This document shows, piece after piece, positions 13,401-63,491 of a stretch of 64,000 nt of DNA (positions are counted from its first letter, which is position 1; the number at the start of each line of letters is the position of its first letter). A program made the position numbers and the translations under genes. The stretch comes from Macrostomum lignano. Lineage: Eukaryota. Where the stretch lies: positions 558,001-622,000 of the forward strand of contig NIVC01000051.1 in assembly GCA_002269645.1 (NCBI GenBank). The letters are read 5' to 3'. The notes under the pieces were generated by a model. It was not told where the DNA came from and searched no databases. It worked only from the letters and a program-made list of their open reading frames with translations.

Positions 13401-16400
13401 TGAAGGAGCGATACAGACGCATGGAAGCAGTTCGCAGCATCTCAGCTGACAGGTGGAACACGCCCATCTCTCTGGCGCGCAGCATGCCATCCAGCTCGGC
13501 TTCCAGCTCTTTGTACCGCTGCTTGTACAGCTGGTTCCTTTCGGCAACCTCCGGACTGACCTCTTTCAGCGGAACGTTCCAGCGAAGCAGCGATACAAGG
13601 ACCGCGCGGTCCGGTAGTCCCTGGAATCCTTGCAGGCCCAGGGTCTTCGTCAGTATGTTCAAAGCGCGTTTGGCATTGTTCTCCTCGAGCAAGCGACCTT
13701 TTGAGAAGTTTTTACGCAGAGACTCGTCGTCATCGTCTTCGTAGAAGTTCTCGGACTCGTCGGAGTCATCGTCGTCGGAGTCGGAGCCGGGCTCAGCTTC
13801 GTCGCGTTTCAACGCCTCCGGATTGAAGTCGATCTTGTTGATCACGTACAGGATGTTCAGATTGGTGCACTGATTCTTCAGGCGGAGGAGGAACTCGCGA
13901 ACCTGGAGGACGATTTAAAATTTGGGGAAATGGGTAAGCTTACGCCGGATGTTAAATATGCTCAAACAATGCAAGCTTCACGTATTTCCGTGCGCCATCT
14001 TTTTTCGAAATAAATATCATGAACACAGAATCTGAACTTTCCCATTTCCGTTGGACTTTTTCCTAGTCGAATCTTATTCTTTTGAGACTTGACTGTATGA
14101 GAATACCGACTTAAAGGAGCAGAGCAGCTCAGTCAAACGCGTCTGACTCTCGGTGTACACCGCGATGCACAGCCATGAGGGCCTAACCCCACAGCACAGA
14201 GAGTGTACATGTCAGACGATTAGAAAGCCGTGTCTGTTTTACACACTGTGTAAGGATATTTTGTAAGGATATCACATCCTAGTTATTGTTTATATCATAC
14301 AGCATCGTTTAAAGGATCGTTATTTTTTGCAAGCGTCACCAGTCAAAATACAATGATGATTGCATCTTCAATAAAAAATCTAACAAGGTCAGTGCTTTGC
14401 ATACAAATTCAATAATTCAGACTAAATCACGGAATAAAGTGACGAGACTCTTTACTCTTCACAGTTTGTTTAGCCACGGTTGTGTTACTGATCGCTACCG
14501 TAATGTGTTTGACATGGATAGACCAAGAGATCCAGGGTGCGGTCTCCCCCCATCACCGAACTCCGACTTTGCGTACCATCTGAGAAATGCCGTTCATTCC
14601 ATCCAGCATGAACACCAGAGTCTGGTAGAGCGATTGCTCCTGCTGATTGAGAATAGACAGCAGGAAGTCCTCTCGCAGGCATTCCGGCACCTCCATGATT
14701 GAAAAGCCGCTCTGCAACAGCGGGCAGTCAACGCCGATCTCGAGCCAGCAGTTCTCCTTCAGCGACGACCATTCCTGTCGTTCCTCTTCGTTCATGCGGT
14801 CGTGTATGAAGCCTCGGACAAGATTGGCCAGCTCTGGACAGCCTCTCGCGTTGTTGTTGCTCCCGTTGTCGCTGCTCGAGTCCGAGTTCAAATTGAGTCC
14901 CCGGTAGCTGACGTAAAACCTGCGTGAAGTGTCACGTGGTTACGAATCTGACTAGAAGAGCAGACTCTTGATATTAATTAGGAACTCAACTCTACATGCT
15001 TAATTACTTTGCGATCATCTTTTGTAATCATTTGTCTTTGAGATCAGTCAAAGTTTTCACAGTACTATTAACGAAAAATAGTTCACCTCTGAGAGTAGAC
15101 AATCCTGATGACGCCCTTGTCCTCCTGGCCGAAACGGACTGGCAAAACTCGTCGGCCCATTAGGCTGTTAATTAGAGTCGACTTGCCGCTCGTTGGAGCG
15201 CCGCAGACCATCAGCACCTGAGGAGTGGGGGTGTCAGATGAGCTAAAACATTTCGAGATTGGGGATTGCGAGTTGCCAGAGGTACCAGGCGCCAGCACCA
15301 GAGGCGCCAGCACCAGAGGCGCCAGCACCAGAGGCGCCAGCACCAGAGGCGCCAGCACCAGAGGCGCCAGCACCAGAGGCGCCAGCACCAGAGGCGCCAG
15401 CACCAGAGGCGCCAGCACCAGAGGCGCCAGCACCAGAGGCGCCAGCACCAGAGGCGCCAGCACCAGAGGCGCCAGCACCAGAGGCGCCAGCACCAGAGGC
15501 GCCAGCACCAGAGGCGCCAGCACCAGAGGCGCCAGCACCAGATGCGCCAGCACCAGAGGCGCCAGCACCAGAGGCGCCAGCACCAGAGGCGCCAGCACCA
15601 GAGGCGCCAGCACCAGAGGCGCCAGCACCAGAGGCGCCAGCACCAGAGGCGCCAGCACCAGAGGCGCCAGCACCAGAGGCGCCAGCACCAGAGGCGCCAG
15701 CACCAGAGGCGCCAGCACCAGAGGCGCCAGCACCAGAGGCGCCAGCACCAGAGGCACCAGCACCAGAAGCGCCAGCAGGCTAGAGGCTAGTTGATGTGCT
15801 GACGAAATGTAGCAAATAAAAAAGCCAACCTGCCAACCCACCGGTTTCGCGTGGCAGCCAAAGCTTGCCGTGATTCCCGCACTCTCCGGTTTCGTTATCC
15901 AGCCGTTGAAGCTCGCCGCCGCCCCGCTGGACGCCGCCGCCGAAGCGGCATCTCTGCCGCCACTGCCGCCGCTGGAGGCCGGACCGCCCACCAGGCGCTG
16001 CACACCGTCAGCGGTGCTCTGCAGCCGGCGATACGCCCGCATGGTCAGCAGGCGCCAGTTGTGCGCCTCGAATCGGTGCCGATCGAACTGGCGCAGATGG
16101 GGCGAGCAGCTGATTGGCCGCATCCGCTGCAGCCTGTCGCCAAGGCTCGAGCAGCTGCTGCCGCAGTCGAATTCATCTGCGAATTGTGGCGTTCGAAGTT
16201 TTTAATTAACAGTGAAAAGTTAGTTAATCTCCATAAACGCTAACTGACGAGCTTAGAAACGGATTGCTTATCTATCCTTGTTTAAGTCAGGAAGTACATT
16301 GAATAGATAGACAAAGGGATTGGTAATCTATCTAACGGTGATTCAGGAAATAGTACAGATGGATTGCTAATCTATCCAACTGTGATTCAGGGAATAGTAC

Positions 16401-26620: not shown

Positions 26621-27440
26621 CAGGGGCGTCGCCTTGGATTTTATGGTGGGGAGGACAAAGCCAAGAATTCAACATATACATGTACACGATTAAATTTTGG
26701 CACTCATTTTAGCACCGCAGGCACGATCATTTTAGCTCCACCAGGTATTCCTTATAGCATCGCAGGCACTCATTTTAGCGCCGCAGGCACTTATTTTAGC
26801 GCCGCAGGCACTCACTTTAGCGCCGCTGGCACTCATGTACTCATTTCAGAACCGCAGGCACTTACTTTAGCACCACAGGCACTCATTTTAGCGCCGCAGG
26901 CACTCGTTTAAGGAGCCGCAGGCACTCATTTTAGCGCTGCAGGCACTTATTTTAGCACTGCAGGCACTCATTTTAGCGCTGCAGGCACTCATTTTAGAAC
27001 CGCATGCAGGCACTTACTTTAGCACCACAGGCACTCATTTTAGCGCTGAAGGCACTCATTTTAGTTTTAGCGTCGGAGGCACTCATTTTAGCGCCGCAAG
27101 AACTCATTTTGGCGCCAAAGGCACTCATTTTTAGCGCCGAAGGCACTCATTTTAGCGCCGAAGGCACGATCATTTTTAGCGCCGTAGGGATTATAAAAGG
27201 CGCTATATATATTTGGCGCCCTGAAGAAAAATTATTGATCACCACAACGACTCACAAGGTGGGGTGGGGGGACAAAGCATTGACATGTCCCCCCAAAGCT
27301 TTCGCCAGGGGCTAGCGGAATGGGCGGTCTCCTCCGCCTCCTCGCTGCATCCGCCGGACGCCCCCTGCAGCTATGTCAAGCCCCCAAAAGCTTTTACTGG
27401 GGGACATGTCCCCCCCTTCCCCCCGGTGGCGACGCGCCTG
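26621..27440. mobile_element. Non-autonomous hAT-like MITE with internal 21-bp array
   Basis: Ends CAGGGGCGTCGCC / GGCGACGCGCCTG. Flanks GTTAACTG and GTTAAACTG form a ~8-bp TSD. Internal CACTCATTTTAGCGCCGCAGG repeats. A sister copy lies at 56197-57215. Confidence 0.7.
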
Positions 27441-27989: not shown

Positions 27990-30900
27990 ACTTGCCCTTA
28001 ATATGCGAGTGGCACAGCACAACCAGGTGCTCCATGTCCGGGTCCCACATGATGCACTGCGGCCCGGAAGCTCGCAAAGTTGGCTGGCGATTGCCAACAA
28101 GAAAGTCGGCCAATTTAGTCAGCCTGGGCATTGGCGGCTCGATGTTGGCCTTCTCAACAGCGCCGAGCATCGCGGCGGCGACTAATCCGGGCGAGGACAG
28201 GCCGGTCAGAGTCGTCGTGCCGGACGCCGTCAAGGTGACACCCTGCGACTGGGTGCTCATCCTGTTGAGCTGGTGAGGCTCAAACTTGTAGCAGCGCAAT
28301 ATGGACTCGCTAGAGGCCGAGACGAATAATATGCTGCGCTTAGAGTCGTAGGCGAGGTATTTTGCACCCGGAAGTAGGTCCTCACCTGGAAGTGGTTCAA
28401 TGCGAGCTGCATGTCAACCTACAAATCCTGCATGTAGCATTTTCCAACAGAAAACCTCCGTTGTAGAAACAAATATCGTTGTATTAACTCTCTGAAATGC
28501 CCCTGGTGCTGGCGCCCCTGGTGCTGGCGCCCCTGGTGCTGGCGCCCCTGGTGCTGACGCCCCTGGTGCTAAAATTGCCCCTGGTGCTAAAGCCCCTGGC
28601 GCTAAAGCTACCAGTCAGACCAAAGCAATTGTAAACCAAAGCAGACCAAAGCAACTCAGCAATATTTCATTAAATACAAACTTGCTTACAAACATGAAGG
28701 AACAAAAAGCGCCATCTCACCGCAATGCGCCACAATCTTCATCGAGTTGAGATTAAAAACGCAGATTCCAGCGTCCAGATTAGACACGAACAGATACTGG
28801 ACAGTGGTATCCGACCCGGTCGTGTCCATCGAACGGTCGATGAGGTTTGTTTCGAATGAGTTCACGACATCGCCGTCGGCTGTCTCGGCGTTGGAGCTGG
28901 ACACGGACGACTCCGTGCCGCCAAGCTCAATGGGGAAGGTCTGGCTCACGCAGCAGTCGAACGGTCGCCACAAACTGCCGAAACGCTCAGCGCTCGTCAA
29001 GCCGAGGTCGCTGGTCTTGCGTAGAAAATTTGCGTTTCAAAATTTTTGTTACACTCGTGAAAACTGATTTTAAGCAGAAATGATCCACCTGACGGACCTG
29101 AGACTTCAACGACCTGACTGGCTGACCCGAGACTTCGACCTGACTGGCTGACCCGAGACTTCGACCTGACTGGCTGACCCGAAGACCCGAGACTTCACTG
29201 TAGACCTGACTGACTGACCCGAGACTTCACTGTAGACCTGACTGACTGACCCGAGACTTCACTGTAGACCTGACTGACTGACCCGAGACTTCACTGTAGA
29301 CCTGACTGACTGACCCGAGACTTCACTGTAGACCTGACTGACTGACCCGAGACCCGAGACTTCACTGTAGACCTGACTGACTGACCCGAGACTTCACTGT
29401 AGACCTGACTGACTGACCCGAGACTTCACTGTAGACCTGACTGACTGACCCGAGACTTCACTGTAGACCTGACTGACTGACCCGAGACTTCACTGTAGAC
29501 CTGACTGACTGACCCGAGGACCCGAGACTTCACTGTAGACCTGACTGACTGACCCGAGACTTCGACCTGACTGGCTGACCCGAGACTTCGACCTGACTGG
29601 CTGACCCGAGGACCCGAGACTTCACTGTAGACCTGACTGACTGACCCGAGACTTCACTGTAGACCTGACTGACCGACCCGAGACTTCACTGTAGACCTGA
29701 CTGACTGACCCGAGACTTCACTGTAGACCTGACTGACTGACCCGAGACTTCACTGTAGACCTGACTGACTGACCCGAGACTTCACTGTAGACCTGACTGA
29801 CTGACCCGAGACTTCACTGTAGACCTGACTGACTGACCCGAGACTTCACTGTAGACCTGACTGACTGACCCGAGGACCCGAGACTTCACTGTAGACCTGA
29901 CTGACTGACCCGAGACTTCACTGTAGACCTGACTGACTGACCCGAGACTTCACTGTAGACCTGACTGACTGACCCGAGACTTCACTGTAGACCTGACTGA
30001 CTGACCCGAGACTTCACTGTAGACCTGACTGACTGACCCGAGGACCCGAGACTTCACTGTAGACCTGACTGACTGACCCGAGACTTCGACCTGACTGGCT
30101 GACCCGAGACTTCGACCTGACTGGCTGACCCGAGGAGACCCGAGACTTCACTGTAGACCTGACTGACTGACCCGAGACTTCACTGTAGACCTGACTGACC
30201 GACCCGAGACTTCACTGTAGACCTGACTGACTGACCCGAGACTTCACTGTAGACCTGACTGACTGACCCGAGACTTCGACCTGACTGGCTGACCCGAGAC
30301 TTCAATGACCTGACTGATTTGAATGATTAACTTAACAGGACCTACGAGCTAAGAATTCAATAAAGCTTACTTGAATTTTAATGAACCTAACGGCCTAATA
30401 ACATAGTAGATTCCAACGACTCAATGTCATTATCAAACCCAGAGACTTAAAAAATGCAACAACTGTCCAGAACTGACCCGGTGCAGAAGGGTTACAGTAT
30501 AGATAGATAGCCAAGCTTACTTTATTCGATCTTACCAACAATCACGAAATCAACCTGAATATCCGAATTTGATGAGCCCCACACAAAGAAGGAAACTCAC
30601 AGGGAACCTTAACACGCAGTTCAACTCCAGGTTAGTGCCGTAGATGTAATAGCTGCTATCGTCAGCCGCAATCGAAGTCAGACAGCCAAGCGGATAGGGC
30701 ACGCTGATGATGCTGTCTCGCATCATCTGCTCATTGTAGCTGGCTAGAATGGCCATCGCATGGAAACGGACGATCGTGTAAATTTGCTTGTCTTTCGTCT
30801 GAGTGCAATCTGACGCTTTAGCTCGACGCACGTTTCGCTGCGAAATGCGTGAAAATCTCCATTTTGTTAACAAAACCAGTGCACGAGTTATTAAAGCATA

Positions 30901-33661: not shown

Positions 33662-36600
33662 TCAGGAGCTGCTAGGGAAGGGCACAGATCTTGGATTGCC
33701 GTAGAAGCACAGGTAGCAATCCTCTAGCAGGCGGTTGCCCTGTTCTGGAGGCGGTGTGTTGCCTGTTTTGTCTTGAAGATCGCGAAGCCACTCTTCAAGG
33801 CCATCGACGCGGGTCACCTCCGGGATGTTGTAGCCATCGTTGCAGCCTGGAAATTCAATCATTTATGAACTGGTTAGAATGGGGCTGGCATAGGGATCGG
33901 GATGGGGATGGAATGGGTGATAGGGATGAAATCGGGATGGATTAAGCAGAATGTGCGGACACGGGAATAAGCTAGTCTGAACTCACCGCCCTCCCTATCG
34001 GCCATGCTATCGAAGAACAGCCAGTGGTTGGGCTCGGCCCTCAAGAAGCAGACGTAGCTGGTGCAAATACAGACAACAGCCAGCAGATCCATGACTGTCT
34101 GACTTTTAACAATTTGTCCGGGTCTCTTATATTTCTCCAGGATATGCCTGGGATATTTAATCTTGATTGGCTCGTGCGTTTTTCCCTTTCTGTGATCCGC
34201 AAACGCCTTGTAGCACGGTTCGCAATAGGTGTAGTCTCGGCCGGAGTCGTGCTTGAGAAAGCACTGATGGCACTCGATAGTGGCAAAGTTGCCGCAGATG
34301 TTGCAGGCCCTGGCGGTGTCCGGCAGCAGGTTGGTGATGTTCAACTGCAGCACTGGCAGGATGCGGTGGAACATTTTATATGACTTCCCAGATCGAGGCA
34401 TCTGCAGAATCAGGCACTGCGGCGGCTCGCTAAACTGGATTAGCGACAGGTGCAGCAGGGTCTCAGTGTCCGCGATGTGCTCGCGTGCACCAGTGGACTG
34501 CGGCTGCTGCTGCTGCTGTGGGAACGCAAATGATGCTAATTGGCTCAATGGGGAGTTGCTGAGATGCCAATTGGCTCAATGGGGAGTTGCTGAGATGCCA
34601 ATTGGCTCAATGGGGAGTTGCTGAGATGCCAATTGGCTCAATGGGGAGTTGCTGAGATGCCAATTGGCTCAATGGGGAGTTGCTGAGATGCCAATTGGCT
34701 CAATGGGGAGTTGCTGAGATGCCAATTGGCTCAATGGGGAGTTGCTGAGATGCCATGGCTGATGCCATGGCCAAAGCTAAAAAACTCAAAGCTGCAAATA
34801 CCTGTTGTGTTTTTAGTTAATTGATGAATTCAATTCAGTTGGAGACACCTGGGTCTCGCTCAATATATTTATAGTCATGTGCACGTTGACAACAGTGTTG
34901 TCACATACATGTAGTCATGTGCACGATACCATAATTGAACGCACGATGCATATAATTAGGTAACTGAACAATTCTAGCCTCAAAGTTAGTCAGTTAGTTA
35001 ATACACCTAGGCCCGATGCAAAGTCACTACAATACCCCAGGCGAGATAGATTATAATTTCAAGGCACAGCGAGAGCTTTTTCAGTTTTACACATTTCAAT
35101 GCCAAGAAGCCAATAGTAATGACTAAAGAAGGCAGTTTAAATATTACTTCTATTGCAATATTTCAGCCTCCGCACCCAGGGGGTAATTAGATTGCAAGTC
35201 CTTAAGCCAATAGTCTCAGTATTAATTCAAAAGACACACCTGCTGTTGCTGCTTCTGCTGTTCGAAAGGCAAATCGGCCCGATCAAGAAACAGCTGCAGC
35301 ACATGGGAGCTCTGCCCAGTGCTCAGTTTGATGAACGGCTCATGACGGAGCACGTGGTCCAGCAGCAGGTTGATGAACTCCTCAGGATCTGCGGGTTGGG
35401 TTGAAACGACATGAGGATAAAGTAGAAGGCATGAGGGGGCTTTTGGGACAAAATTTTTCACGTCCTCCATAATCCCATTAAATCCATCCATATTATCCCC
35501 GACAGAATCAGAAAAAAGGGGGGTCGCACTTACTCCAAAAACTTCGAACATAATCCCATTAAATCCATCCATATTATCCCCGACAGAATCAGAAAAAAGG
35601 GGGGTCGCACTTACTCCAAAAACTTCGAACATAATCCCATTAAATCCATCCATATTATCCCTGACAGAATCAGAAAAAAAGAGGGAGTCGCACTCGCTCA
35701 CAAAACGTCCTCCATAATCCCATTAAATCCATCCATATTATCCCCGACAGAATCAGAAAAAAGGGGGGTCGCACTCGCTCACAAAACGTCCTCCATAATC
35801 CCATTAAATCCATCCATATTATCCCCGACAGAATCAGAAAAAAGGGGGGTCGCACTCGCTCACAAAACGTCCTCCATAATCCCATTAAATCCATCCATAT
35901 TATCCCCGACAGAATCAGAAAAAAGGGGGGTCGCACTCGCTCACAAAACGTCCTCCATAATCCCATTAAATCCATCCGTATTATCCCCGACAGAATCAGA
36001 AAAAAGGGGGGTCGCACTCGCTCACAAAACGTCCTCCATAATCCCATTAAATCCATCCGTATTATCCCCGACAGAATCAGAGCATAACAGGTGTCCTACT
36101 TGTTCCGAAAACTTCGAACATAATCCCATTATAATCCACTGACATCCACCCATAGCATCTTCGAAACAATCAGAAAATAATCTGAATTCTTCTCCCCACA
36201 TTCAATCCGCAACGTGCTACCACATCCCTAAAACTTTAAATCCCCTAACCCAGGGTCCTTACCCTTTGAAAAAAAATTAAATTTTCTCTAAAATGTTTCC
36301 AGTTGTCTCTCCAGGTTCTTATTACAAAGCGCACGAGCCTAATTACAAGAGTAAGTACCGATGCAAACTTGAATGCAGCGAGTACATGAGAAAATATTGG
36401 CCCGGCGTTGATATCAATGTCCCTAATATTAATCTAGCTCTCCAAAGACACTGGTTTCATAAGTATGGAGTAACCTACGTAAAAGATTACGACAGCTACT
36501 ATAACTTTGCAGAAATCATTAAGCAATTGTAGTTGCCAACTACAAGGTTGTACCTTGTAGAGTGTAGACGTAAGTTCTAAAAATAAAACCCATGCCATGC

Positions 36601-48600: not shown

Positions 48601-51600
48601 AAGCCTTTTGAAACTCTGTGGCTGCTTGGAAAAACTCATTGTAGGATTGTTGCTCCTTATTTATTAGCCCAGTAAATCGTTTCTCTGCTTGTGCTAGCTT
48701 TTCCAATTCAGATATCTGCTGTGTACTTTTTCGCTTCATTTCTTATTTTATTTTATTTTTAGTTAAAAAATTGACGACCCACTGACACCAGTTTTCTACC
48801 CACTGCCATTTTTTTGACAGCAAATCCTATGACACAATCAAAGCGACTCAGGTAAGAGTTCCCAGTCAGGAAAATCAGAATGAAACTAATCTTGGTCCTG
48901 GTCAAACACTGACATTTACATACAATGGATGTTCGTCTTTGGTTAGTGTGCACAGTCTTAAGAGCGGCTTCCATATGACATTTCAATTCAAGACAAAGGG
49001 TAGTGCGGATGCGGCTCGTGCTAACGTTGACAAGCATGATGCGGATGTGGCTCTGATCAGTAACTTTTGGGCGTACATGTTCAAGGAGTTTAGTGTATCG
49101 AATGGGAGCACAGAGTTGGAGCGAATCGCCAACTTTGGAATTGTCTATGACGCTCATTGTTTGATCGAGAATCCTGATTTTATTCAGTTGGGAAGTGGTG
49201 CGGGTTTTATTGCAGACGAAAAAGAAGGAGATATCAATGACAGTGGTTATAAAAATAGGAAGAAGAGATACAACTATGCATTGCAAGGTGCTGATGATGC
49301 TGCTAAGAACCCGCTGTATCGGTCTGTTGATGTATTTGTACCACTGAGATTCATGAGTGGATTCTGTAATACATTTAATCGACTGACCAGTAACTTTAGC
49401 TACACCTTTAGGATGACTAGAGATAATCGCAATAGAGTGTTGTGGACTGGGGCGGATCACACAAGGATGGAGGTGAAGCTAACCGGAATCGAGCTGTATT
49501 TGGAAGTCATTGAGCCAAAGACTGCACTAAAAGCAGACTATCTTAAGGCAATAGAGAAGGACATTGATGTTGCATACACGGCCTACATGTGTCGAGATGA
49601 GCGAAACGAAACTAGAACAAACATCCGCATTAAAGAGGTATCATGCAGCAATCCAAGGTATATTATTATTAACATGAGAAACCCAAATAGCATTATACGC
49701 TACATGCATGGAGACGTGCGGTCCATTCAGCATGAAATCAGTGATAATCTTTACCCTGCACTGCCACAAAATGGAGATTTCAGTCAGAACAAGATTAGCA
49801 AATTTTACAGCGAGTTGGTCGACTTGGCTGTGAAAGAGAACAATGGAATTGCTATCACTGCTCTTCAATATGGAACTCTATATCCGATGTTTGGCGCTGA
49901 TGTGTCTGCCAGACAAATGCCTACTGATAACAGCCCTGTGAATATCGTGACTAACATTGAGAGGACTGCCGCAACACCCGTGGACCTGTACATTATCTAT
50001 GCATTTGAGAGGAAGGTGAAGCTTAACATGATCAACAATTCATCCAGTAAAGTTTAAATTTTTTTTGGGTGAAAAAAATGGAAGCGATTGCTGAAAGACT
50101 AAATAATATTGTTTCTCACTCCAAGGAGAGCATTCCTATTACAATAACTGGGCGAATAAATGACTCAAACGGGATATTTGTTCAAAAATTAGAGCAGGCG
50201 ATTAGCCTGGATCCAGGTGCTAATTACCATGTCTATCTTAACGACTTCACTGGTTGGTCAAACGTTCCCAATGTGACGGCAGCAAATAATAAGTTTTATT
50301 ACAAATGGAAAGGTGCAGCAGCAGAACCTGTGGTATTCCCTGTGAGCACGCAAAGTGTGGATACCCACAATTACTTTCTAGAAAACGTCTTTACTAAAAG
50401 AGGCCATTTTGAGACACCTGATATGAGTAAGCCAGATAAAAAACTGTTCCCTGTCAAACTAGCCTATGATCTCACTGTAATGAGAGTGGTCATGCAAGTT
50501 CACAAAGATGCGGAGGTTGAGTTTAAAGATGACACTTGGTATAGGGAATTGGGATTCGAGAAGAAAGTTTATAAGGCAGAATCCGCGGCGCGGACCGCCA
50601 CTCAAGCGTCAGGGGCCGTTAGCATGGCCCGGGAAAACGTAAGCGGTTTGTTCTTAGCACCCAATATTGCAGACATTGTAAAGGGTTTGAATATTCTAAT
50701 CAAAAGTAATATCAGTCTTGATTGGGTATTTAAGGGAAAGCGAACGAATATTTTGTACAACATCTCTAACTCTGTTGCTGGAGGACAGATGCTGGTAGAG
50801 AAACCAAATCCAGTGAAAAGAGTTGTATTGAGTAATAAGGAGATTCACGAGATTGTGCTACAGTTTGAGACTGAAGATGGGGTGGGTGTTGATTTCAACG
50901 GTGAATAGTTTGTATTGACGTTAATCATTGAGAGAATGTGAGAAAAATTACAATTGCCTAATGATTTCTGCAAAGTTATAGTAGCTGTCGTAATCGTTAA
51001 TGACTACTCCATACTTATGAAACCAGTGTCTTTGGAGAGCTAAATTAATATTAGGGACATTGATATCAACGCCGGGCCAATATTTTCTCATGTGCTCGTT
51101 GCATTCTAGTTTGCATCGGTACATACTCTTGTAATTAGGCTCGTGCGCTTTGTAATAAAAACCTGGAGAGACAACTGGAAACATTTTTAGAGAAAATTTA
51201 ATTTTTTTTCAAAGGGTAAGGACCCTGGGTTAGGGGATTTAAAGTTTTAGGGATGTGGTAGCACGTTGCGGATTGAATGTGGGGAGAAGAATTCAGATTA
51301 TTTTCTGATTGTTTCGAAGATGCTATGGGTGGATGTCAGTGAATTATAATGGGATTATGTTCGAAGTTTTCGGAACAAGTAGGACACCTGTTATGCTCTG
51401 ATTCTGTCGGGGATAATACGGATGGATTTAATGGGATTATGGAGGACGTTTTGTGAGCGAGTGCGACCCCCCTTTTTTCTGATTCTGTCGGGGATAATAT
51501 GGATGGATTTAATGGGATTATGGAGGACGTGAAAAAATTTGTCCCAAAAGCCCCCTCATGCCTTCTACTGGATAAAAAGGTATGTCATGTTTTCTGGGGA

Positions 51601-54079: not shown

Positions 54080-55415
54080 CTGTGGGATGGGGAGCTGTGG
54101 GATGTGGAGCTGTGGGATGGGGATCTGTGGGATGGGGATCTGTGGCATGGGGAGATGTGGGATGGGGAGATGTGGGATGGAGAGCTGTGGGATGGGGAGC
54201 TGTGGGATGGGGATCTGTGGGATGTGGAGCTGTGGGATGGGGATCTGTGGGATGGGGAGCTGTGGGATGGGGAGCTGTGGGATGGGGAGCTGTGGGATGG
54301 GGATCTGTGGCATGGGGAGATGTGGGATGGGGAGATGTGGGATGGAGAGCTGTGGGATGGGGAGCTGTGGGATGGGGATCTGTGGGATGGGGAGATGTGG
54401 GATGGGGATCTGTGGGATGGGGAGCTGTGGGATGGGGAGATGTGGGATGGGGATCTGTGGCATGGGGAGATGTGGGATGGGGAGATGTGGGATGGAGAGC
54501 TGTGGGATGGGGAGCTGTGGGATGGGGATCTGTGGGATGGGGAGATGTGGGATGGGGAGATGTGGGATGGGGAGCTGTGGGATGGGGAGATGTGGGATGG
54601 GGATCTGTGGCATGGGGAGATGTGGGATGGGGATCTGTGGAATGGAGAGCTGTGGGATGGGGAGCTGTGGGATGGGGATCTGTGGGATGGGGAGCTGTGG
54701 GATGGGGAGCTGTGGCATGGGGATCTGTGGCATGGGGAGATGTGGGATGGGGATCTGTGGCATGGGGAGATGTGGGATGGGGAGCTGTGGAATGGAGAGC
54801 TGTGGGATGGGGATCAGTGGAATGGGGAGCTGTGGGATGGAGAGCTGTGGGATGGGGAGCTGTGAGATGGGGAGATGTGGGATGGGGAGCTGTGGGATGG
54901 GGATCTGTGAGTTGGGGAGCTGTGGGATTGGAGAGCTGTGGAAAGGGGAGCTGTGGGATGGGGAGCTGTGGGATGGAGAGCTGTGGGATGGGGAGCTGTG
55001 AGATGGGGAGATGTGGGATGGAGAGCTGTGGGATGGGGATCTGTGAGTTGGGGAGCTGTGGGATGGGGAGATGTGGGATGGGGAGCTGTGGGATGGGGAT
55101 CTGTGAGTTGGGGAGCTGTGGGATTGGAGAGCTGTGGAAAGGGGAGCTGTGGGATGGGGAGCTGTGGGATGGAGAGCTGTGGGATGGGGAGCTGTGAGAT
55201 GGGGAGATGTGGGATGGAGAGCTGTGGGATGGGGATCTGTGAGTTGGGGAGCTGTGGGATTGGAGAGCTGTGGAAAGGGGATCTGTGAGATGGGGAGCTG
55301 TAGGATAGAGAGCTGTGGGATGGGGAGCTGTGGGATGGAGAGCTGTGGGGTGGGGATCTGTGAGATGGGGAGCTGTGGGATTGGAGAGCTGTGGAAAGGG
55401 GAGCTGTGGGATGGG
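54080..55415 (+). repeat. G-rich 15-bp minisatellite (TGTGGGATGGGGAGC variants)
   Basis: Long array with GGG/GGGG runs; lies between the CYLD-B start and the CYLD-A 3' flank. Confidence 0.95.
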
Positions 55416-56196
55416 AATAACTAAAATAGGCCCATTGGGACTGCAATTCAAGAGAACTTAGCGCATGACTGCGGGCCAGAGGGAAAGAGAAGAAGCAAGG
55501 GAATAAAGGAGAAGAGAGGAGAAGAAGGACGAGAGAAGGAGAGAAGAGAAAATATATTAAAAAGTGGAGAGGAAAGAAATGGGAGACGAGAGCAGAGATG
55601 AGAGATTATAGAGAAGAGAGCTGAGCGGACCGGATTGCCATTGTGAAGTTTGAAAGGAGCCGAGGGCCGGTTAGAGAGGCTCTGCAGGCCGGAGCGACCC
55701 CTCTGGTCAAGCTACAGATGGGACATGACACTTGATTTAGAAGTGAAATACAGTAATTACCAACATTTAAAATACAAAATTGCATCAGTTGTGGGTCGCC
55801 AGGTTCAGCTTGTACTAATCTGGATAAATAAAAACATGCCAAGACAAGTCAAGATACGATTCAGTTTTCAATAATATTTTGTCATAATGTTTGCTGATAC
55901 GAGTATATTTCTCGTTTAAAATATAACAGGCTTCTCTAAAAAGTTGATTTCACTTTGTTTTGTTTTTAGTACAGAATGAATTTTTTTTTGCAAAAAAGCA
56001 AGAAAAGCCTCTGCATCAGCACAGCGGGGGGTCGATCTGGATAAGCATTTGGAAACGCGAAACCGTTCTACACATTTACAGGTGTGATGATGATGATAAA
56101 TAGGGATTAAAAAAATAATAAACATCGAGACAAAACAGTTAAAACTTTCATTAAGGATCACACTCGATTGAATAATTTTTTATTGATTGACGATGA

Positions 56197-57215
56197 CGGA
56201 GGTGTCGCCATGGATTTTACGGTGGGGGGACAAAGCCAAGAATTCTGCATGTACATAACTAAATACCTACATGTACATTATTTTGAGAATTGGTGTTGTC
56301 AGCGCTCATTTTGATGCCACAGTCACTCATTCTGGCGCAGTAGTCACTTATTTTGGTGCCACAGTCACTCATTTTGGTGCCACAGTCACTCATTTTGGTG
56401 CCACAGTCACTCATTTTGGTGCCACAGTCACTCATTTTGGTGCCACAGTCGCTCATTTTGGCGCCACAGTCACTTATTTTGGTGCCACAGTCACTTATTT
56501 TGGCGCCACAGTCATTTATTTTGGTGCCACAGTCATTCATTTTGGCGCCACAGTCACTTATTTTGGCGCCACAGTCATTTATTTTGGTGCCACAGTCATT
56601 CATTTTGGCGCCACAGTCACTTATTTTGGCGCCACAGTCATTTATTTTGGTGCCACAGTCATTCATTTTGGCGCCACAGTCATTTATTTTGGTGCCACAG
56701 TCATTTATTTTGGTGCCACAGTCATTCATTTTGGCGCCACAGTCACTTATTTTGGTGCCACAGTCACTTATTTTGGCGCCACAGTCATTTATTTTGGTGC
56801 CACAGTCACTTATTTTGGTGCCACAGTCATTCATTTTGGCGCCACAGTCACTTATTTTGGTGCCACAGTCACTTATTTTGGCGCCACAGTCATTTATTTT
56901 GGTGCCACAGTCACTTATTTTGGTGCCACAGTCATTCATTTTGGCGCCACAGTCACTTATTTTGGTGCCACAGTCACTTATTTTGGTGCCACAGTCACTT
57001 ATTTTGGCACCACAGTCACTCATTTTGTCGCCACAGTCACTCATTTTGGCGCCACAGACATTCATTTTGGCGCCGAAGGCACTCATTTTGGTGCCGCAGG
57101 TGCTATGCTTTGGAGCTCGTAAGCAAAATTATTGATTTCCATAACGGGTCACAAGATGGGGTGGAGCATTGGCATGACAAAGCATTGACATGTCCCCCCG
57201 GTGGCGACGCCCCTG
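56197..57215. mobile_element. hAT-like MITE with internal 21-bp array (sister of 26621-27440)
   Basis: Ends CGGAGGTGTCGCC / GGCGACGCCCCTG. Shares GGATTTTA.GGTGGGG.GGACAAAGCCAAGAATTC with the sister copy. Flanks GACGATGA / GATGATGG. Absent at the paralogous site near 33120. Confidence 0.75.
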
Positions 57216-57749: not shown

Positions 57750-60700
57750 TCAGGAGCTGCTAGGGAAGGGCACAGATCTTGGATTGCCGTAGAAGCACAG
57801 GTAGCAATCCTCTAGCAGGCGGTTGCCCTGTTCTGGAGGCGGTGCGTTGCCTGTCTTGCCTTGAAGATCGCGAAGCCACTCTTCAAGGCCATCGACGCGG
57901 GTCACCTCCGGGATGTTGTAGCCATCGTTGCAGCCTGGTAAATTCAATCATTTATGAACTGGTTAGAATGGGGGGTGGCATAGGGATACATATGAAACAG
58001 AGATGGAATGGGGATGGGGATGAGTAGTAGGGGTTAGCAGAACACGGCCGACACGGCGGAGATAGGAGGCGGGGTAGTGCATTGGGATAGGAGGAGGCCG
58101 CCTATCTCTCAACATAGAGACGGTTAACACTGCAGAGATAGGAGGAGAGGCGGCCTATTTCTTTGTACTTGGGATGGTTAACACTGCAGAGATAGGAGGA
58201 GAGGCGGCCTATTTCTTTGTACTTGGGACGGTTAACACTGTAGAGATAGGAGGAGAGGCGGCCAATCTCTTTGTACTTGGGACGGTTAACACTGCAGAGA
58301 TAGGAGGAGAGGCGGCCTATCTCTTTGTACTTGGGATGGTTAACACTGCAGAGATAGGAGGAGAGGCGGCCTATCTCTTTGTACTTGGGACGGTTAACAC
58401 AGCAGAGATAGGAGGAGAGGCGGCCTATCTCTTTGAACTTGGGATGGTTAACACTGCAGAGATAGGAGGAGAGGCGGCCTATCTCTTTGAACTTGGGATG
58501 GTTAACACTGCAGAGATAGGAGGAGAGGCGGCCTATCTCTTTGAACTTGGGATGGTTAACACTGCAGAGATAGGAGGAGAGGCGGCCTATCTCTTTGTAC
58601 TGGGGACGGTTAACACTGTAGAGATAGGAGGAGAGGCGGCCTATTTCTTTGTACTTGGGATGGTTAACACTGCAGAGATAGGAGGAGAGGCGGCCTATCT
58701 CTTTGTACTTGGGATGGTTAACACTGCAGAGATAGGAGGAGAGGCGGCCTATTTCTTTGTACTGGGGATGTTCAGCACTGTAGAGATAGGGGAAGCGGCT
58801 AACTTTTGCACACAAAAAACAATTTTACTACCTGGACAAATAAGAAGGGGTGGCTGCTGCAGAGTAACTGCCTGGGGCCTGGATTGGCCTGGATTTAGCT
58901 GTTTTTTCTTGCATGCACTGTACAGTGTTTACTGGCTGGTCTTTGTTGCTTTACTAAGTGTACTTACTGATAATAGATAAGTCTATTGGGTCAATTACTG
59001 GACGCCATATATTGTACCTGGAAACATTTAGCATTCATTCAACTAACCCACTCCATCTTATCTCTGCAGTGTTAACCGTCCCCAGTACAAAGAGATAGGC
59101 CGCCTCTCCTATCTCTGCAGTGTTAACCGTCCCAAGTACAAAGAGATAGGCCGTCTCTCCTCCTATCTCTACAGTATTAACCGTCCCAAGTACAAAGAGA
59201 TAGGCCGCCTCTCCGCCTATCTCTGCAGTGTTAACCATCCTAAGTACAAAGAGATAGGCCGCCTCTCCTCCTATCTCTACAGTATTAACCGTCCCAAGTA
59301 CAAAGAGATAGGCCGCCTCTCCTCCTATCTATGCAGTGTTAACCATTCCAAGTACAAAGAGATAGGCCGCCTCTCCTCCTATCTCTACAGTGTTAACCGT
59401 CCCCAGTACAAAGAGATAGGCCGCCTCTCCTCCTATCTCTGCAGTGTTAACCATCCCAAGTACAAAGAGATAGGCCGCCTCTCCTCCTATCTCTGCAGTG
59501 TTAACCATCTTTATGTTGAGAGATAGGCGGCCTCCTACTATCCCAATGCACTACCCCGCCTCATACTCGTATCTCCGCCCTGTCGCCCTGCTTACCCCTA
59601 CTACTGGGATGGAATGGGGATGGCAAGGGGATGGGAATGAAATGGGAATTGGGGATGGAATGCAAGACGATGAGAGAGAGAGGATGCTGAGGCGGGCAGC
59701 TAGTCTGAACTCACCGCCCTCCCTATCGGCCATGCTATCGAAGAACAGCCAGTGGTTGGGCTCGGCCCGCAAGAAGCAGACGTAGTGGCTGGTGCAAATA
59801 CAGACAACAGCCAGCAGATCCATGACAGTCTGACTTTCAACCACCTCTCCAGGATTCTGATATTGCTCCAGGATATGCCTAGGATATTTAATCTTGATTG
59901 GCTCGTGCGTTTTTCCCTTTCTGTGATCCGCAAACGTCTTATAGCACGGTTCGCAATAAGTGTAGTCTCGGCCGGAGTCGTGCTTGAGAAAGCACTGATG
60001 ACACTCGATGGTGGCAAAGTTGCCGCAGATGTTGCAGGCCCTGGCGGTGTCCGGCAGCAGGTTGGTGATGTTCAACTGCAGCACTGGCAGGATGCGGTGG
60101 AACATTTTATATGACTTCCCAGATCGAGGCATCTGCAGAATCAGGCACTGCGGCGGCTCGCTAAACTGGATGTTGCTCTGGATTAGCGACAGGTGCAGCA
60201 GGGTCTCAGTGTCCGCGATGTGCTCGCGTGCACCAGTGGAATGCGGCTGCTGCTGCTGCTGTGGGAACGCAAATTATACAAGCGTTGCTGTCATGTCATG
60301 GCTTAAGGATGAGTTGCTGAGATGCTAATTAGCTTTAAGAGGAGTTGCTGAGATGCTAATTGGCTTAACCACTTGTCTACGACAGAATTCCTTCCCCACA
60401 TCTCTATCTTACCAAATGGCAAGCACTGCATGCCATAGACAATTTAGATCTGCGCTGTACACTTCGAATTTCAAAACAGTTGCTTTATTATGCACAGGCA
60501 AGAAAACGCTTTCTCAACAGGAGAAGTGACATCTTTGACTGGAGAATAGTCTATGGCCAACCTAGAAAAAAAGGCAAGAGGGAGGGAATACAGGCATGAA
60601 AAGTTAACTGCAAGAATTTTTACTGGTGCCTCCTTAGCTCACCACCCCAACTTACCAAATCTACAATGCAAGCGGTCAGACAGCGACGGCAAGCAGCCAA

Positions 60701-63491
60701 GCAAGCCTTGCGAAACTTGGGCCTCGACAGCGAATCGAGCGATGAGTCGAGCGATGACTCATTTTTCACTGCCGAGAGCGAGGGAGAGGACGGTGACGAA
60801 AATCAAGAAGGCAACGATGGACCGGAGGAAGACGATCAGGGAATGATGCACGATGATTGGAGATCAGTAACTCCAGAGACTGATGCTCGAGCTAATTCCC
60901 TTCCCGAGTTCCTCGGGGCAAGCGGAGTCAATCCGGGATTCTCCGTACCTGCTGATGTTGACGACGGCTGGACAGCCATTTTCGAGCAATTTTTACCCGA
61001 TGAGTTGCTGCTTCAGATGTGCATGTGGACAAACAAGAGAGCGCAGCTGGATATTGCCAAGTTTCAAGAAGAACACGGAGACGATGAACTGCCTTACGGG
61101 CTCAGAACGTGGAAGCCCTGCACTGTTTCTGAGATGAAGAAGGTGATCGGCGTTATATTATATACCGGAGTTGTACAGAAACCGGAGGTGACGGCTTACT
61201 GGTCCACGGACCCGTTTTACTTTCATCCCTACTTTCAAAGCATGAAGATGCTTCCTCGCTCGCGGTTTCAACAAATCATGTCATGGCTGCGTTGCTATGA
61301 CTGTCTTGACTTCGACGCTGGTGATCCCTTGTGCAAGATCAGGCCGTTCCTAGACATGGTCCAGACAGTTTGCAAGAACAGCTACCTGCCCGGTCAAAGC
61401 ATTGCCGTTGATGAAGCGCTGCTGCTCTATAAAGGGAGGCTGATTTTTAAGCAGTACATGCCCAACAAGAGAGCCAAGTTTGGCATCAAATTGTACTGCC
61501 TTGCAGAGTCTTCTACAGGCTACATGTGGAACTATCTGATACATTCAACCACCATTGCGAATGAACAGTTCGGCAACGATGTGCCGCAGCTCTCAATCAG
61601 TGAGAGAGTCGTCGTAGAACTTTGTCGCGACATTCTGGACCTTGGATATCGGGTCTTTTGCGACAGTTGGTTTTCATCGGTGCGACTGGCCAAGTTCCTT
61701 CTGACCAGAGGAACAACCTTAACTGGGACCGTTCGCAAAGACCGAGGCGTTCCACCGATTCTGCGAGATATGCTCTTGCAACCACCGAGTCATTCCTTTG
61801 CCCGACATGGTGACATCCTTGCTGTGAAGCTGGTTGACAGGCGAAGCTCAGGAACAAAGACGGTCTATCTGTTGGACTCCGCTTCAACGGCTGCTAGCTC
61901 TTTGGTTAGCCGGGTACTGCGCGGTGGTGTGGAGCAGCAGCTGCTGAAGCCCAACTCGGTTTTGCAATATAATCACAACATGGGAGGTGTGGATCGGATG
62001 GATGCCGCAGCCCAGCCTTACAGCGCATGCCGCCGAACGCACAAATGGTTCGCAAAGTTGGCGGTGTTTCTGCTACAGCAGCTGGTTCGCAACTCCTGGA
62101 TTGTGTACCGACATCTAGGTGGATCCATGAGCTTTCTCAGCTACACTGAAAGGTGTGTAAAGCACTTGATTGAAAGCAGCGGAAATGGTCGATCGAGAGT
62201 TAAGCGTCAGGCTCTTCCCCGTCAGCCAGGCGACATTCATCACCGGCTGGAAAAGCTACCCGCTACCGCAGCACAAGAACGGCCTACCAAGCGTTGCCGA
62301 GTTTGTTACCAGCGCAGACTGAAAAAGCGGACCGTCTACTTCTGCCAAGGCTGTGACGGTCAGCCTGGGCTTTGCCTGGAGCCGTGCTTCTTTGAGTGGC
62401 ACTCGGCTAACTGATTGCTGGCGCTTTGCTGAAACTGTAATCGAACTGTTGCTAAAATTATTTTCATTCACTTGCATGCAGCTTCATTTGCCCTTATGTT
62501 CTCAAGATTTACCTTTGTGCATGCAATGTATGTCGTTTTCTATTTGTTTTGTGACACTCCGACGCAGTATGACAATACAAACAGTTTTTTGGCCTTGGCA
62601 TGCATAGCATTCCATTTGGTTGAGTCAGACAATGATTCTGTCTAAACTCGCTTTCCCATCGACTTCAAATCTGTCTATGGTCAATTGACAGAATGAACGA
62701 TGGCATGCACAGCATGCCACTGGTAATCATAAGGTTAAGGAGGAGTTGCTGAGATGCTATTGGCTTAAGGAGGAGTTGCTGAGATGCCATGGCTCAATGG
62801 GGAGTTGCTGAGATGCCAATTGACTCAAGGAGGAGTTGCTGAGATGCCAATTGGCTCAAGGAGGAGTTGCTGAGATGCCATGGCTCAATGGGGAGTTGCT
62901 GAGATGCCAATTGGCTCAATGGGGAGTCGCTGAGATGCCAATTGGCTCAAGGAGGAGTTGCTGAGATGCCAATTGGCTCAATGGGGAGTCGCTGAGATGC
63001 CAATTGGCTCAAGGAGGAGTTGCTGAGATGCCAATTGGCTCAATGGGGAGTTGCTGAGAAGCCAAGGCTTAAAAGTCGGGAAGCTGATACCTTAGACCGA
63101 ATAACTTATGATACCAGGGACAGCGAAGGCGTTAGCAGTTTTACTCATACATATTACAATGTCAATAATAATAATAATACAACAATAGAAGCCAGGTTTA
63201 ATATCTGTTCGATTGCTAGTTCTGTAGCAAATACTTTTTTCAATATAAACTTGAATTAAAGTAATTTAGCTGAATTATACAGATAAAAGAATAAACTCAG
63301 TCAGATTTTAATAGTCGATTTTATTTAATTCAAAAGACACACCTGCTGTTGCTGCTTCTGCTGTTCGAAAGGCAAATCGGCCCGATCAAGAAACAGCTGC
63401 AGCACATGGGAGCTCTGCCCAGTGCTCAGTTTGATGAACGGCTCGTGACGGAGCGCGTGGTCCAGCAGCAGGTTGATGAACTCCTCGGGGT
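57750..63491 (-). CDS. CYLD: CYLD-like deubiquitinase, copy A, last three exons (5' part beyond the window)
   Basis: Exons 63491-63343, 60258-59715 and 57934-57750, paralogous to copy B; retains CICTSHYVCF and FFDSMAD. Confidence 0.9.
58023..59605. mobile_element. 1,583-bp gene-less foldback element with Polinton-type termini (candidate mini-Polinton)
   Basis: Starts AGTAGTAGGGGT, ends ACCCCTACTACT. 6-bp TSD GGGATG at 58017-58022 and 59606-59611. Arms are inverted arrays of a 54-bp unit (~12 left, ~9 right) around a ~250-bp spacer. Absent from the CYLD-B intron. Confidence 0.8.
60369..62734 (+). mobile_element. piggyBac-family transposon, 2,366 bp, TTAA TSD
   Basis: TTAA at 60365-60368 and 62735-62738, CC...GG termini, splits the host 31-bp array. 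Confidence 0.9.
60666..62414 (+). CDS. Intact piggyBac transposase, 582 aa
   Basis: Acidic N-terminus; DDD triad in AVDEA, FCDSWFSS and MGGVDRMD; C-terminal Cys-rich domain CRVC...YFCQGC...LCLEPCF...H. Confidence 0.93.
   Translation: MQAVRQRRQAAKQALRNLGLDSESSDESSDDSFFTAESEGEDGDENQEGNDGPEEDDQGMMHDDWRSVTPETDARANSLPEFLGASGVNPGFSVPADVDDGWTAIFEQFLPDELLLQMCMWTNKRAQLDIAKFQEEHGDDELPYGLRTWKPCTVSEMKKVIGVILYTGVVQKPEVTAYWSTDPFYFHPYFQSMKMLPRSRFQQIMSWLRCYDCLDFDAGDPLCKIRPFLDMVQTVCKNSYLPGQSIAVDEALLLYKGRLIFKQYMPNKRAKFGIKLYCLAESSTGYMWNYLIHSTTIANEQFGNDVPQLSISERVVVELCRDILDLGYRVFCDSWFSSVRLAKFLLTRGTTLTGTVRKDRGVPPILRDMLLQPPSHSFARHGDILAVKLVDRRSSGTKTVYLLDSASTAASSLVSRVLRGGVEQQLLKPNSVLQYNHNMGGVDRMDAAAQPYSACRRTHKWFAKLAVFLLQQLVRNSWIVYRHLGGSMSFLSYTERCVKHLIESSGNGRSRVKRQALPRQPGDIHHRLEKLPATAAQERPTKRCRVCYQRRLKKRTVYFCQGCDGQPGLCLEPCFFEWHSAN
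62739..63060. repeat. 31-bp minisatellite in the CYLD-A intron (continues at 60305-60368 on the other side of the piggyBac)
   Basis: Same unit as 34538-34760, ~13 copies in total. Confidence 0.9.

Follow-up and report, generated by a model that had tools for sequence, protein, structure and literature searches.

A gene-less foldback element of 1583 bp (58023-59605) sits in an intron of a CYLD-like gene of Macrostomum lignano. It is a real insertion with Polinton-type ends and a foldback shape; positions refer to the window, the whole stretch of 64,000 nucleotides analysed here. Judged by sequence, a Polinton-type end is the best fit and probably the correct one, summed over the three Polinton readings weighed below. 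The leading explanation among them, which we put forward tentatively, is that the element derives from a Polinton/Maverick family different from that of the full-length Polinton nearby, has lost its genes and its autonomy, and is moved in trans. It is based on the sharp Polinton-type ends, a 6-bp flank match, an empty paralogous site, the lack of genes, and an arm plan that resembles that of the neighbouring (resident) Polinton.

Anatomy and insertion site

The element consists of two inverted arms joined by a middle (spacer) of 248 nt, and each arm follows the same plan of a 12-bp end, a 99-nt lead and an array of a 54-bp unit. Both termini read AGTAGTAGGGGT and are identical in inverted orientation at 12 of 12 positions, the identity ending at the next outer base; the perfect 12-bp terminal match reported in an earlier sequence-only reading of this DNA was thus found at 58023 and 59605. 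In the alignment the two arms pair over 567 nt with an identity of 91.4%, which makes them long terminal inverted repeats, and the best ungapped arm pair covers 467 nt at 94% identity. The two inverted arrays named by the same reading hold 12.4 copies of the unit on the left (58122-58790) and 8.5 copies, inverted, on the right (59051-59506). They had been put at about 85% of the element; measured, they occupy 1125 of 1583 bp (71%), and about 84% is reached once both unique 99-nt leads are counted. The spacer, described beforehand as non-coding and of about 250 bp, indeed lacks a coding signal. With its long inverted arms, tandem subrepeats and non-coding middle, the element belongs to the foldback structural class, which is a shape reached by several superfamilies and not a lineage.

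Private variants are present in each arm, and the left and right leads are identical at 88 of 105 columns. The identity between the two ends changes along their length, with 12/12 at positions 1-12, 14/35 (ungapped) at positions 13-47 and 49/52 at positions 48-99; two compensating 6-nt indels separate the leads within positions 13-47. The break of the right array in mid-unit beside the spacer, near 59050, is a plausible candidate for a deletion junction. Two origins of the spacer were rejected, namely decayed array units (290 of 500 shuffles were equally good) and a self-complementary stretch (51 of 300 shuffles were equally good). Within the window there are no other copies of the unit, the lead or the spacer, and the element finds no match among prokaryotic genomes, plasmids and phages, collections that are uninformative on animal copy number.

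Table 1 Coordinates of the element, its flanks, the host introns and the neighbouring Polinton in the window
Feature	Position	Strand	Remark
Neighbouring full-length Polinton in paralogue A, terminal repeats with 81-bp array	35421..51569	.	6-bp duplication GGATAA
Counterpart intron of paralogue A (empty site)	33847..33986	-	
Host intron of CYLD-like paralogue B, carrying the element	57935..59714	-	GT-AG
GGGATG, left flank copy, probable target site duplication	58017..58022	+	chance rate 5/158 intron positions
Left terminus, perfect 12-bp inverted repeat starting (AGT)2	58023..58034	+	motif as in PMC8097293
Left 99-nt lead, outer arm domain, degenerate copy of the array unit	58023..58121	+	0/500 shuffles reach the match to the unit
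Left array, 12 units of 54 bp (last 53) and a degenerate inner unit	58122..58799	+	
Unique middle, 248 nt, 40% GC	58800..59047	.	coding, RNA-family and self-complementary signals absent
Right array, 8 units (innermost 51 bp) and a part unit broken mid-unit	59048..59506	-	
Right 99-nt lead and terminus, ending (ACT)2	59507..59605	-	
GGGATG, right flank copy	59606..59611	+	

Spliceosomal introns are present in this animal DNA, and the minus strand of the window carries two CYLD-like genes in tandem, assigned by a match to PDB 2vhf (E 5e-35) and the presence of CAP-Gly domains. Between the two paralogues, the exons on either side of the intron are identical at 186 columns out of 194 and at 509 out of 546. 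Set against the empty intron of paralogue A, the element is a sharp insertion in paralogue B, beside the gene that hosts the Polinton, as had been stated before. The CYLD introns here accumulate insertions, one Polinton included.

Exact flank duplications among lengths of 1 to 30 bp occur at 1 and 6 bp only, and every length from 7 to 15 bp carries at least three mismatches (3, 6, 7 and 6 at 7, 8, 9 and 10 bp). The 6-bp flank match is probably a target site duplication, although this is not proven, since GGGATG is frequent in the intron (a chance of about 2-3%) and the hexamer count of the paralogous intron fits either reading. A 6-mer duplication arises by chance at 5 of 158 positions of the host intron, 2 of 113 of the paralogue intron and 99 of 63,988 of the window; the paralogue A intron carries the 14-mer predicted by a 6-bp duplication, and its hexamer count also fits no duplication. 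The sequence-only reading had claimed a perfect 6-bp duplication: the flank match is exact as claimed, and its status as a duplication is unproven against the 2-3% background, so that the caution voiced with that claim, a chance match in a GGGATG-rich intron, was well placed. Duplications of 8-9 bp, named there as evidence for other elements, are not present at this copy (6 and 7 mismatches). A TA target, with the ends lying 4 or 7 nt further in, was rejected; the implied AG-TA-CT targets are absent from the paralogous intron.

These observations also bear on a non-mobile origin, by local inverted minisatellite duplication or as an assembly artefact. The window is rich in minisatellites (53 tandem-repeat rows) and the chance background of the flank duplication is 2-3%, both of which speak for such an origin. 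The insertion is nevertheless sharp against the paralogue, no second copy of unit, lead or spacer exists in the window as a source of duplication, and the unique leads at both ends and the private variants of the arms are unlike a read-through fold-back artefact, so we regard a non-mobile origin as highly improbable.

Polinton-type ends and comparable elements

The element ends AGTAGT..ACTACT are exactly (AGT)2//(ACT)2, which PMC8097293 gives as the commonest end motif of vertebrate Mavericks. In the same source, the terminal motif together with a perfect 6-bp duplication serves to map vertebrate Mavericks, the motif being (AGT)2//(ACT)2 or (AG)3//(CT)3. AGTAGT or AGAGAG stands at 69 of the 127,982 positions of the window. 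The element ends and the end of the large Polinton are identical at 8 of 9 bases, in line with the AGTAG(A/T)AGG that had been noticed in both; an 8-of-9 match to the resident end is found at 14 of 127,982 positions, four of which are the termini themselves, i.e. about 1 in 10,000. The Polinton end signature proposed earlier is borne out by the exact motif and the 6-bp flank, with the TA-target readings excluded. The genes of autonomous Polintons (pPolB, integrase, ATPase, protease and capsids) are absent, the open frames are borne by the repeats only, and no Polinton family is found among the Pfam matches of the element.

Autonomous Polinton/Maverick elements have the same (AGT)2//(ACT)2 ends, a 6-bp duplication, which is probable for the element, and long terminal repeats; these repeats measure 46-1447 bp in the PMC8097293 set, and the element has about 570 paired. 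It differs from them by the absence of the pPolB, integrase, ATPase, protease and capsid genes, by having one tenth of their size, and by arms that are looser near the ends. The zebrafish Polinton-1N1_DR, -2N1_DR and -4N1_DR, listed in supplement 3 of PMC9341512, are like the element Polinton-class non-autonomous derivatives (by the naming rule of PMC4455052). They are multi-copy families of 15,469, 11,092 and 10,436 bp, whereas the present element is one copy of 1,583 bp, nearly all terminal repeat; the comparison is by catalogue rows, not sequences. No account of a gene-less Polinton derivative below 2 kb was found in the literature, a scope outside which lie the Repbase entries and most subscription papers. 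Transpovirons and Tlr1 are likewise linear dependants with inverted-repeat ends, of Polinton-like class (PMC5499653). They encode a helicase and other genes, and transpovirons are about 7 kb and reside in mimivirus particles, in contrast to the gene-less element. Further general background is contained in parts of PMC6431247, PMC8969392, PMC5499653 and PMC11296320.

The shape of the element raises a different reading, in which it is a foldback from a different, cut-and-paste superfamily (hAT6, an unassigned group with 6-bp duplications, or Mutator/P with a chance duplication) and its AGT end is coincidental. The array units would then be extra binding sites for a transposase, by analogy with Galileo. 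The foldbacks Tetris, Galileo and FB have the same long, internally repetitive arms with unequal repeat numbers and a non-coding middle, and foldbacks likewise follow the order of a flank domain, a tandem domain and a middle that is non-coding (PMC4079207). Another non-autonomous element with inner tandem arrays lies at 56184-57215. In cut-and-paste elements, short perfect ends usually give way to divergent subterminal sequence, a pattern that counts for this reading. The target site duplication of Galileo is 7 bp. Tetris, which is assigned to Mutator and has a modular shape, makes duplications of 8-10 bp (PMC4079207), whereas the element has a probable 6-bp duplication and AG..CT ends; with 3, 6, 7 and 6 mismatches at 7-10 bp, the 8-10-bp or 7-bp duplication needed for a Mutator-type foldback or Galileo is absent. 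Duplications of 6 bp are also made by IS3EU/GingerRoot (PMC10045372) and by hAT6 (PMC12730594), and small gene-less IS3EU members measure 1.5-4 kb. IS3EU/GingerRoot ends are TA..TA or TG..CA, in contrast to the AG..CT ends of the element, and membership was rejected on this ground; hAT6 was compared on duplication length alone, which fits. Since the 8-of-9 match to a proven Polinton end also falls at only about 1 in 10,000 positions, a cut-and-paste foldback is an unlikely reading.

The neighbouring Polinton and the unit hairpin

In the neighbouring Polinton, matches to integrase, pPolB, protease, ATPase and capsid were obtained, the majority of which fall short of the Pfam curated cut-off. 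Several genes of this Polinton extend across two or more frames, and those for integrase, polymerase and ATPase are disrupted. The hexamer duplicated at its flanks occurs just once at the empty site in paralogue B, which confirms the 6-bp duplication, and its own two ends agree at 38 of 39 positions. Of the 81-bp unit, its left terminal repeat carries 7.7 copies and the right one about two. Tandem arrays in terminal repeats, unequal in both cases, are therefore not unique to the element. Because the neighbour's terminal repeats also carry an unequal array, the element looks, by analogy, like two Polinton-type arms with the interior deleted.

The neighbour itself was rejected as the parent. By the Repbase rule, elements are grouped by ends when positions 1-11 differ at no more than one site (PMC4455052), and the two elements differ there by 3 mismatches. 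Compared with the neighbour's terminal repeat, the left lead, right lead and unit give scores reached by 300, 282 and 232 of 300 shuffles, so that the arm sequence is not common to both; the neighbour's genes are moreover frameshifted. The mismatches and the shuffle-level scores agree with the earlier suggestion that the helper may be another family. The window contains one Polinton, with arms not common to the element, and hence no autonomous partner with the same terminal repeat. The preferred derivative is helped by the occurrence elsewhere of Polinton lineages close to the resident, 7 out of 4802 candidates having capsid proteins 69-77% identical.

Each 54-bp unit contains a palindrome with a 9-bp stem and an 11-nt loop, as the sequence-only reading had described, and a 9-bp stem appeared in 3 of 2000 shuffles of one unit. 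Folding of the unit gave z = -1.95 on the plus strand (10/200 shuffles as good) and -3.20 on the minus strand (0/200). An equal stem was present in one of eight other tandem units tested in the window, and the 81-bp unit of the resident Polinton has no such hairpin (z +1.32). None of the nine stem pairs is changed on both sides; six are invariant and one shows a change from G-C to G-T (16 distinct of 20 units). The stem, which makes up 33% of the unit, received 3 of 13 distinct substitutions (18 of 20 units used), and with so few substitutions selection on the hairpin is neither shown nor excluded. A selected hairpin finds no support, there being no covariation. When the single strand is folded (1499 of 1583 nt), the arm-to-arm panhandle dominates and three looped-out surplus units of the left array form a hairpin. 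The picture of an element built from hairpins as a selected structure is therefore not supported, and nor is a role for the unit hairpins, as covariation is lacking and the panhandle displaces most hairpins. Most simply, the split palindrome may serve as a double-strand site, repeated along the array, to which a dimeric protein binds, and not as a functional hairpin, by analogy with the Galileo repeats described in PMC4079207.

Two word-index searches with about 8000 candidates each, one frame being searched at near lengths and the other at shorter lengths only, found no relatives of the 18-residue repeat frames. Against the Atlas the frames scored 0.82 at best, with recognition 854, which is the chance level, and their Pfam matches are repeat noise. 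In either open frame 5 of 13 substitutions are synonymous, where 22-25% would be expected, and one substitution creates a stop. A coding role was rejected, with no relatives and no clear synonymous bias. No Rfam match indicating a structured RNA was obtained at E up to 1.

A closer relationship would make the element a packaged satellite of the neighbour that borrows its polymerase, integrase and capsid and uses the hairpins as replication or packaging signals. Eight of nine terminal bases in common, a 6-bp duplication at each of the two elements (a probable one at the smaller) and insertion in neighbouring paralogues are consistent with it. Two weak matches of the spacer to the resident, both chosen after the search, point the same way: 23/27 nt in an intergenic stretch (0/150 shuffles reach its score of 34; a control stretch scores 31) and a 12-mer in the inner terminal repeat (9/300 shuffles as good). 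The arm sequence, however, is not common with the neighbour, whose genes are frameshifted, and covariation of the hairpins and a hairpin in the 81-bp unit are both lacking. The element also has one tenth of the usual Polinton genome size. Intact Mavericks measure about 17 kb within about 10%, which PMC8097293 reads as a capsid constraint, and packaging of a 1.6-kb monomer is disfavoured on this account. The helper-satellite pair with capsids borrowed from the neighbour thus finds no footing in the broken integrase, polymerase and ATPase frames of the neighbour or in a size far below that of Mavericks, and we consider it very improbable.

Proposed mobility and its meaning

For the preferred derivative of another Polinton family, two terminal repeats, each comprising the 12-bp end, the 99-nt lead and the 54-bp array, would have been joined by the 248 nt after loss of the coding interior. 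The excised single strand would close into a panhandle via its arms, following the published Polinton model. A protein-primed polymerase of the helper would initiate at the AGT repeats through jumping back and so copy the strand, after which the double strand would be integrated, with a 6-bp stagger, by the helper's retroviral-like integrase. The copy number of the unit would change by slippage, and capsids would be unnecessary for any of these steps. Protein-primed copying by jumping back is described in PMC8097293, and the model is summarised in PMC4196379. The folding of the single strand as a long panhandle counts for this derivative, and the uneven divergence of the ends at positions 13-47 fits, weakly, an inherited asymmetry better than even decay in place. 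Against it stand the single copy in hand, the absence of a parent or helper within the window, and a lead identity of 88/105, lower than a working panhandle origin would lead one to expect, given 38/39 for the resident ends. The case is made in PMC8097293 that virions of limited size are the main vehicle by which vertebrate Mavericks spread, and PMC3014272 reports no non-autonomous Polinton copies in Anolis. Among the matches listed, moreover, small gene-less elements named for 6-bp duplications, such as the zebrafish DNA-6-N and DNA6 families of 0.5-4 kb, are placed under IS3EU, hAT or no superfamily; some of them could be of the present type.

The same end and duplication evidence applies to a one-off remnant, in which a full-length Polinton of another family inserted here, one deletion later removed its interior, and the short form itself never moved. 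The right array broken mid-unit at the spacer and the left array ending in a degenerate unit are as at a deletion junction. Degradation affects 96% of vertebrate Maverick loci (PMC8097293), TIR-only Polinton remnants are described in C. elegans (bioRxiv 10.1101/2024.01.15.575659), and the CYLD introns have gained other insertions, one of them a Polinton. On the other hand, the spacer holds no convincing trace of a Polinton gene (the best tblastx match to the resident Polinton has an E of 0.048), both ends and the duplication are perfect, and the divergence of the arms is uneven and concentrated at positions 13-47, contrary to what decay in place predicts. A remnant is the main rival, though on the whole not likely.

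A bolder form of mobility is a dispersed, MITE-sized family of Polinton parasites, copied as free linear DNA by the protein-primed polymerase of the helper and inserted by its integrase, with the arrays out-competing the helper for an end-binding protein and maybe with several copies per helper capsid. We consider this improbable.

Non-autonomous Polintons are known at 10-15 kb, and what is new here is one this small. How animal Polintons move, by self-synthesis in the cell or as virions only, is still argued from sequence (PMC8097293). Should the element prove a lone remnant, it would be an ordinary fossil whose use lies in indicating a second Polinton family for the genome. If it belongs to a multi-copy 1.6-kb family with fresh 6-bp duplications, polymerase and integrase would act in trans on a substrate far below a normal capsid load, and the family would mark out minimal Polinton ends. 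Polintons would then, if the reading is true, join the superfamilies that reach the foldback shape, and a dispersed satellite would define the minimal cis sequence for the replication and integration of an animal Polinton.

CYLD-like genes as hosts of insertions

Two tandem CYLD-like paralogues on the minus strand occupy about 32300–64000 of the window. Comparison of paralogue A, which carries the full-length resident Polinton, with paralogue B, which carries the gene-less 1,583-bp foldback element (58023–59605), revealed that different mobile elements have accumulated in the introns of each gene, and each paralogue provides the empty site for the insertions of the other.

Features of the paralogues and of the resident Polinton (35421–51569)
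Feature	Position	Remarks
1.03-kb insertion	56184–57215	Missing from paralogue A
piggyBac-type element	about 60369–62734	TTAA flanks, transposase frame
81-bp arrays	35460–36138 and 51420–51530	Terminal repeats of resident Polinton
Phospholipase A2-like domain	38273–38773	In resident Polinton
Adenovirus protein X-like ORF	39991–40293	In resident Polinton

The 1.03-kb insertion has hAT-like ends and an inner array (21-bp unit, 37.7 copies), and the duplication that flanks it, about 8 bp long, is degenerate. A second, related copy is located at about 26621–27290. The piggyBac-type element has inserted into a minisatellite with a 31-bp unit in paralogue B, and its transposase frame (60600–62414, 604 aa) is open and matches PF13843 (E 4e-69). 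An array of a 15-bp unit (88.8 copies, strong G skew) was observed at 54080–55415; its unit is based on GGGATG, the motif also present at the target site of the foldback element in paralogue B. Elsewhere, one 15-bp repeat occurs at both 15287–15777 and 28499–28603, in opposite orientation and 13 kb apart.

The resident Polinton

The 81-bp arrays in the terminal repeats are unequal, with 7.7 copies at the left end versus about two at the right. The reading frame of the major capsid protein is uninterrupted, and relatives were found at 69–77% identity. Frameshifts were identified in the integrase, pPolB, and ATPase, reflecting either decay or assembly error.

Spacer and leads of the foldback element

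Two weak matches, both selected after the search and borderline against shuffles, link the unique 248-nt spacer of the foldback element to non-coding stretches within the resident Polinton (58821–58847 with 38092–38118, and 59018–59029 with 36291–36302). The leads, the outer domains of the two arms, differ by two compensating 6-nt indels (58035–58069 versus 59559–59593), and the distance from terminus to array therefore stays constant at 99 nt, which possibly reflects a spacing constraint.
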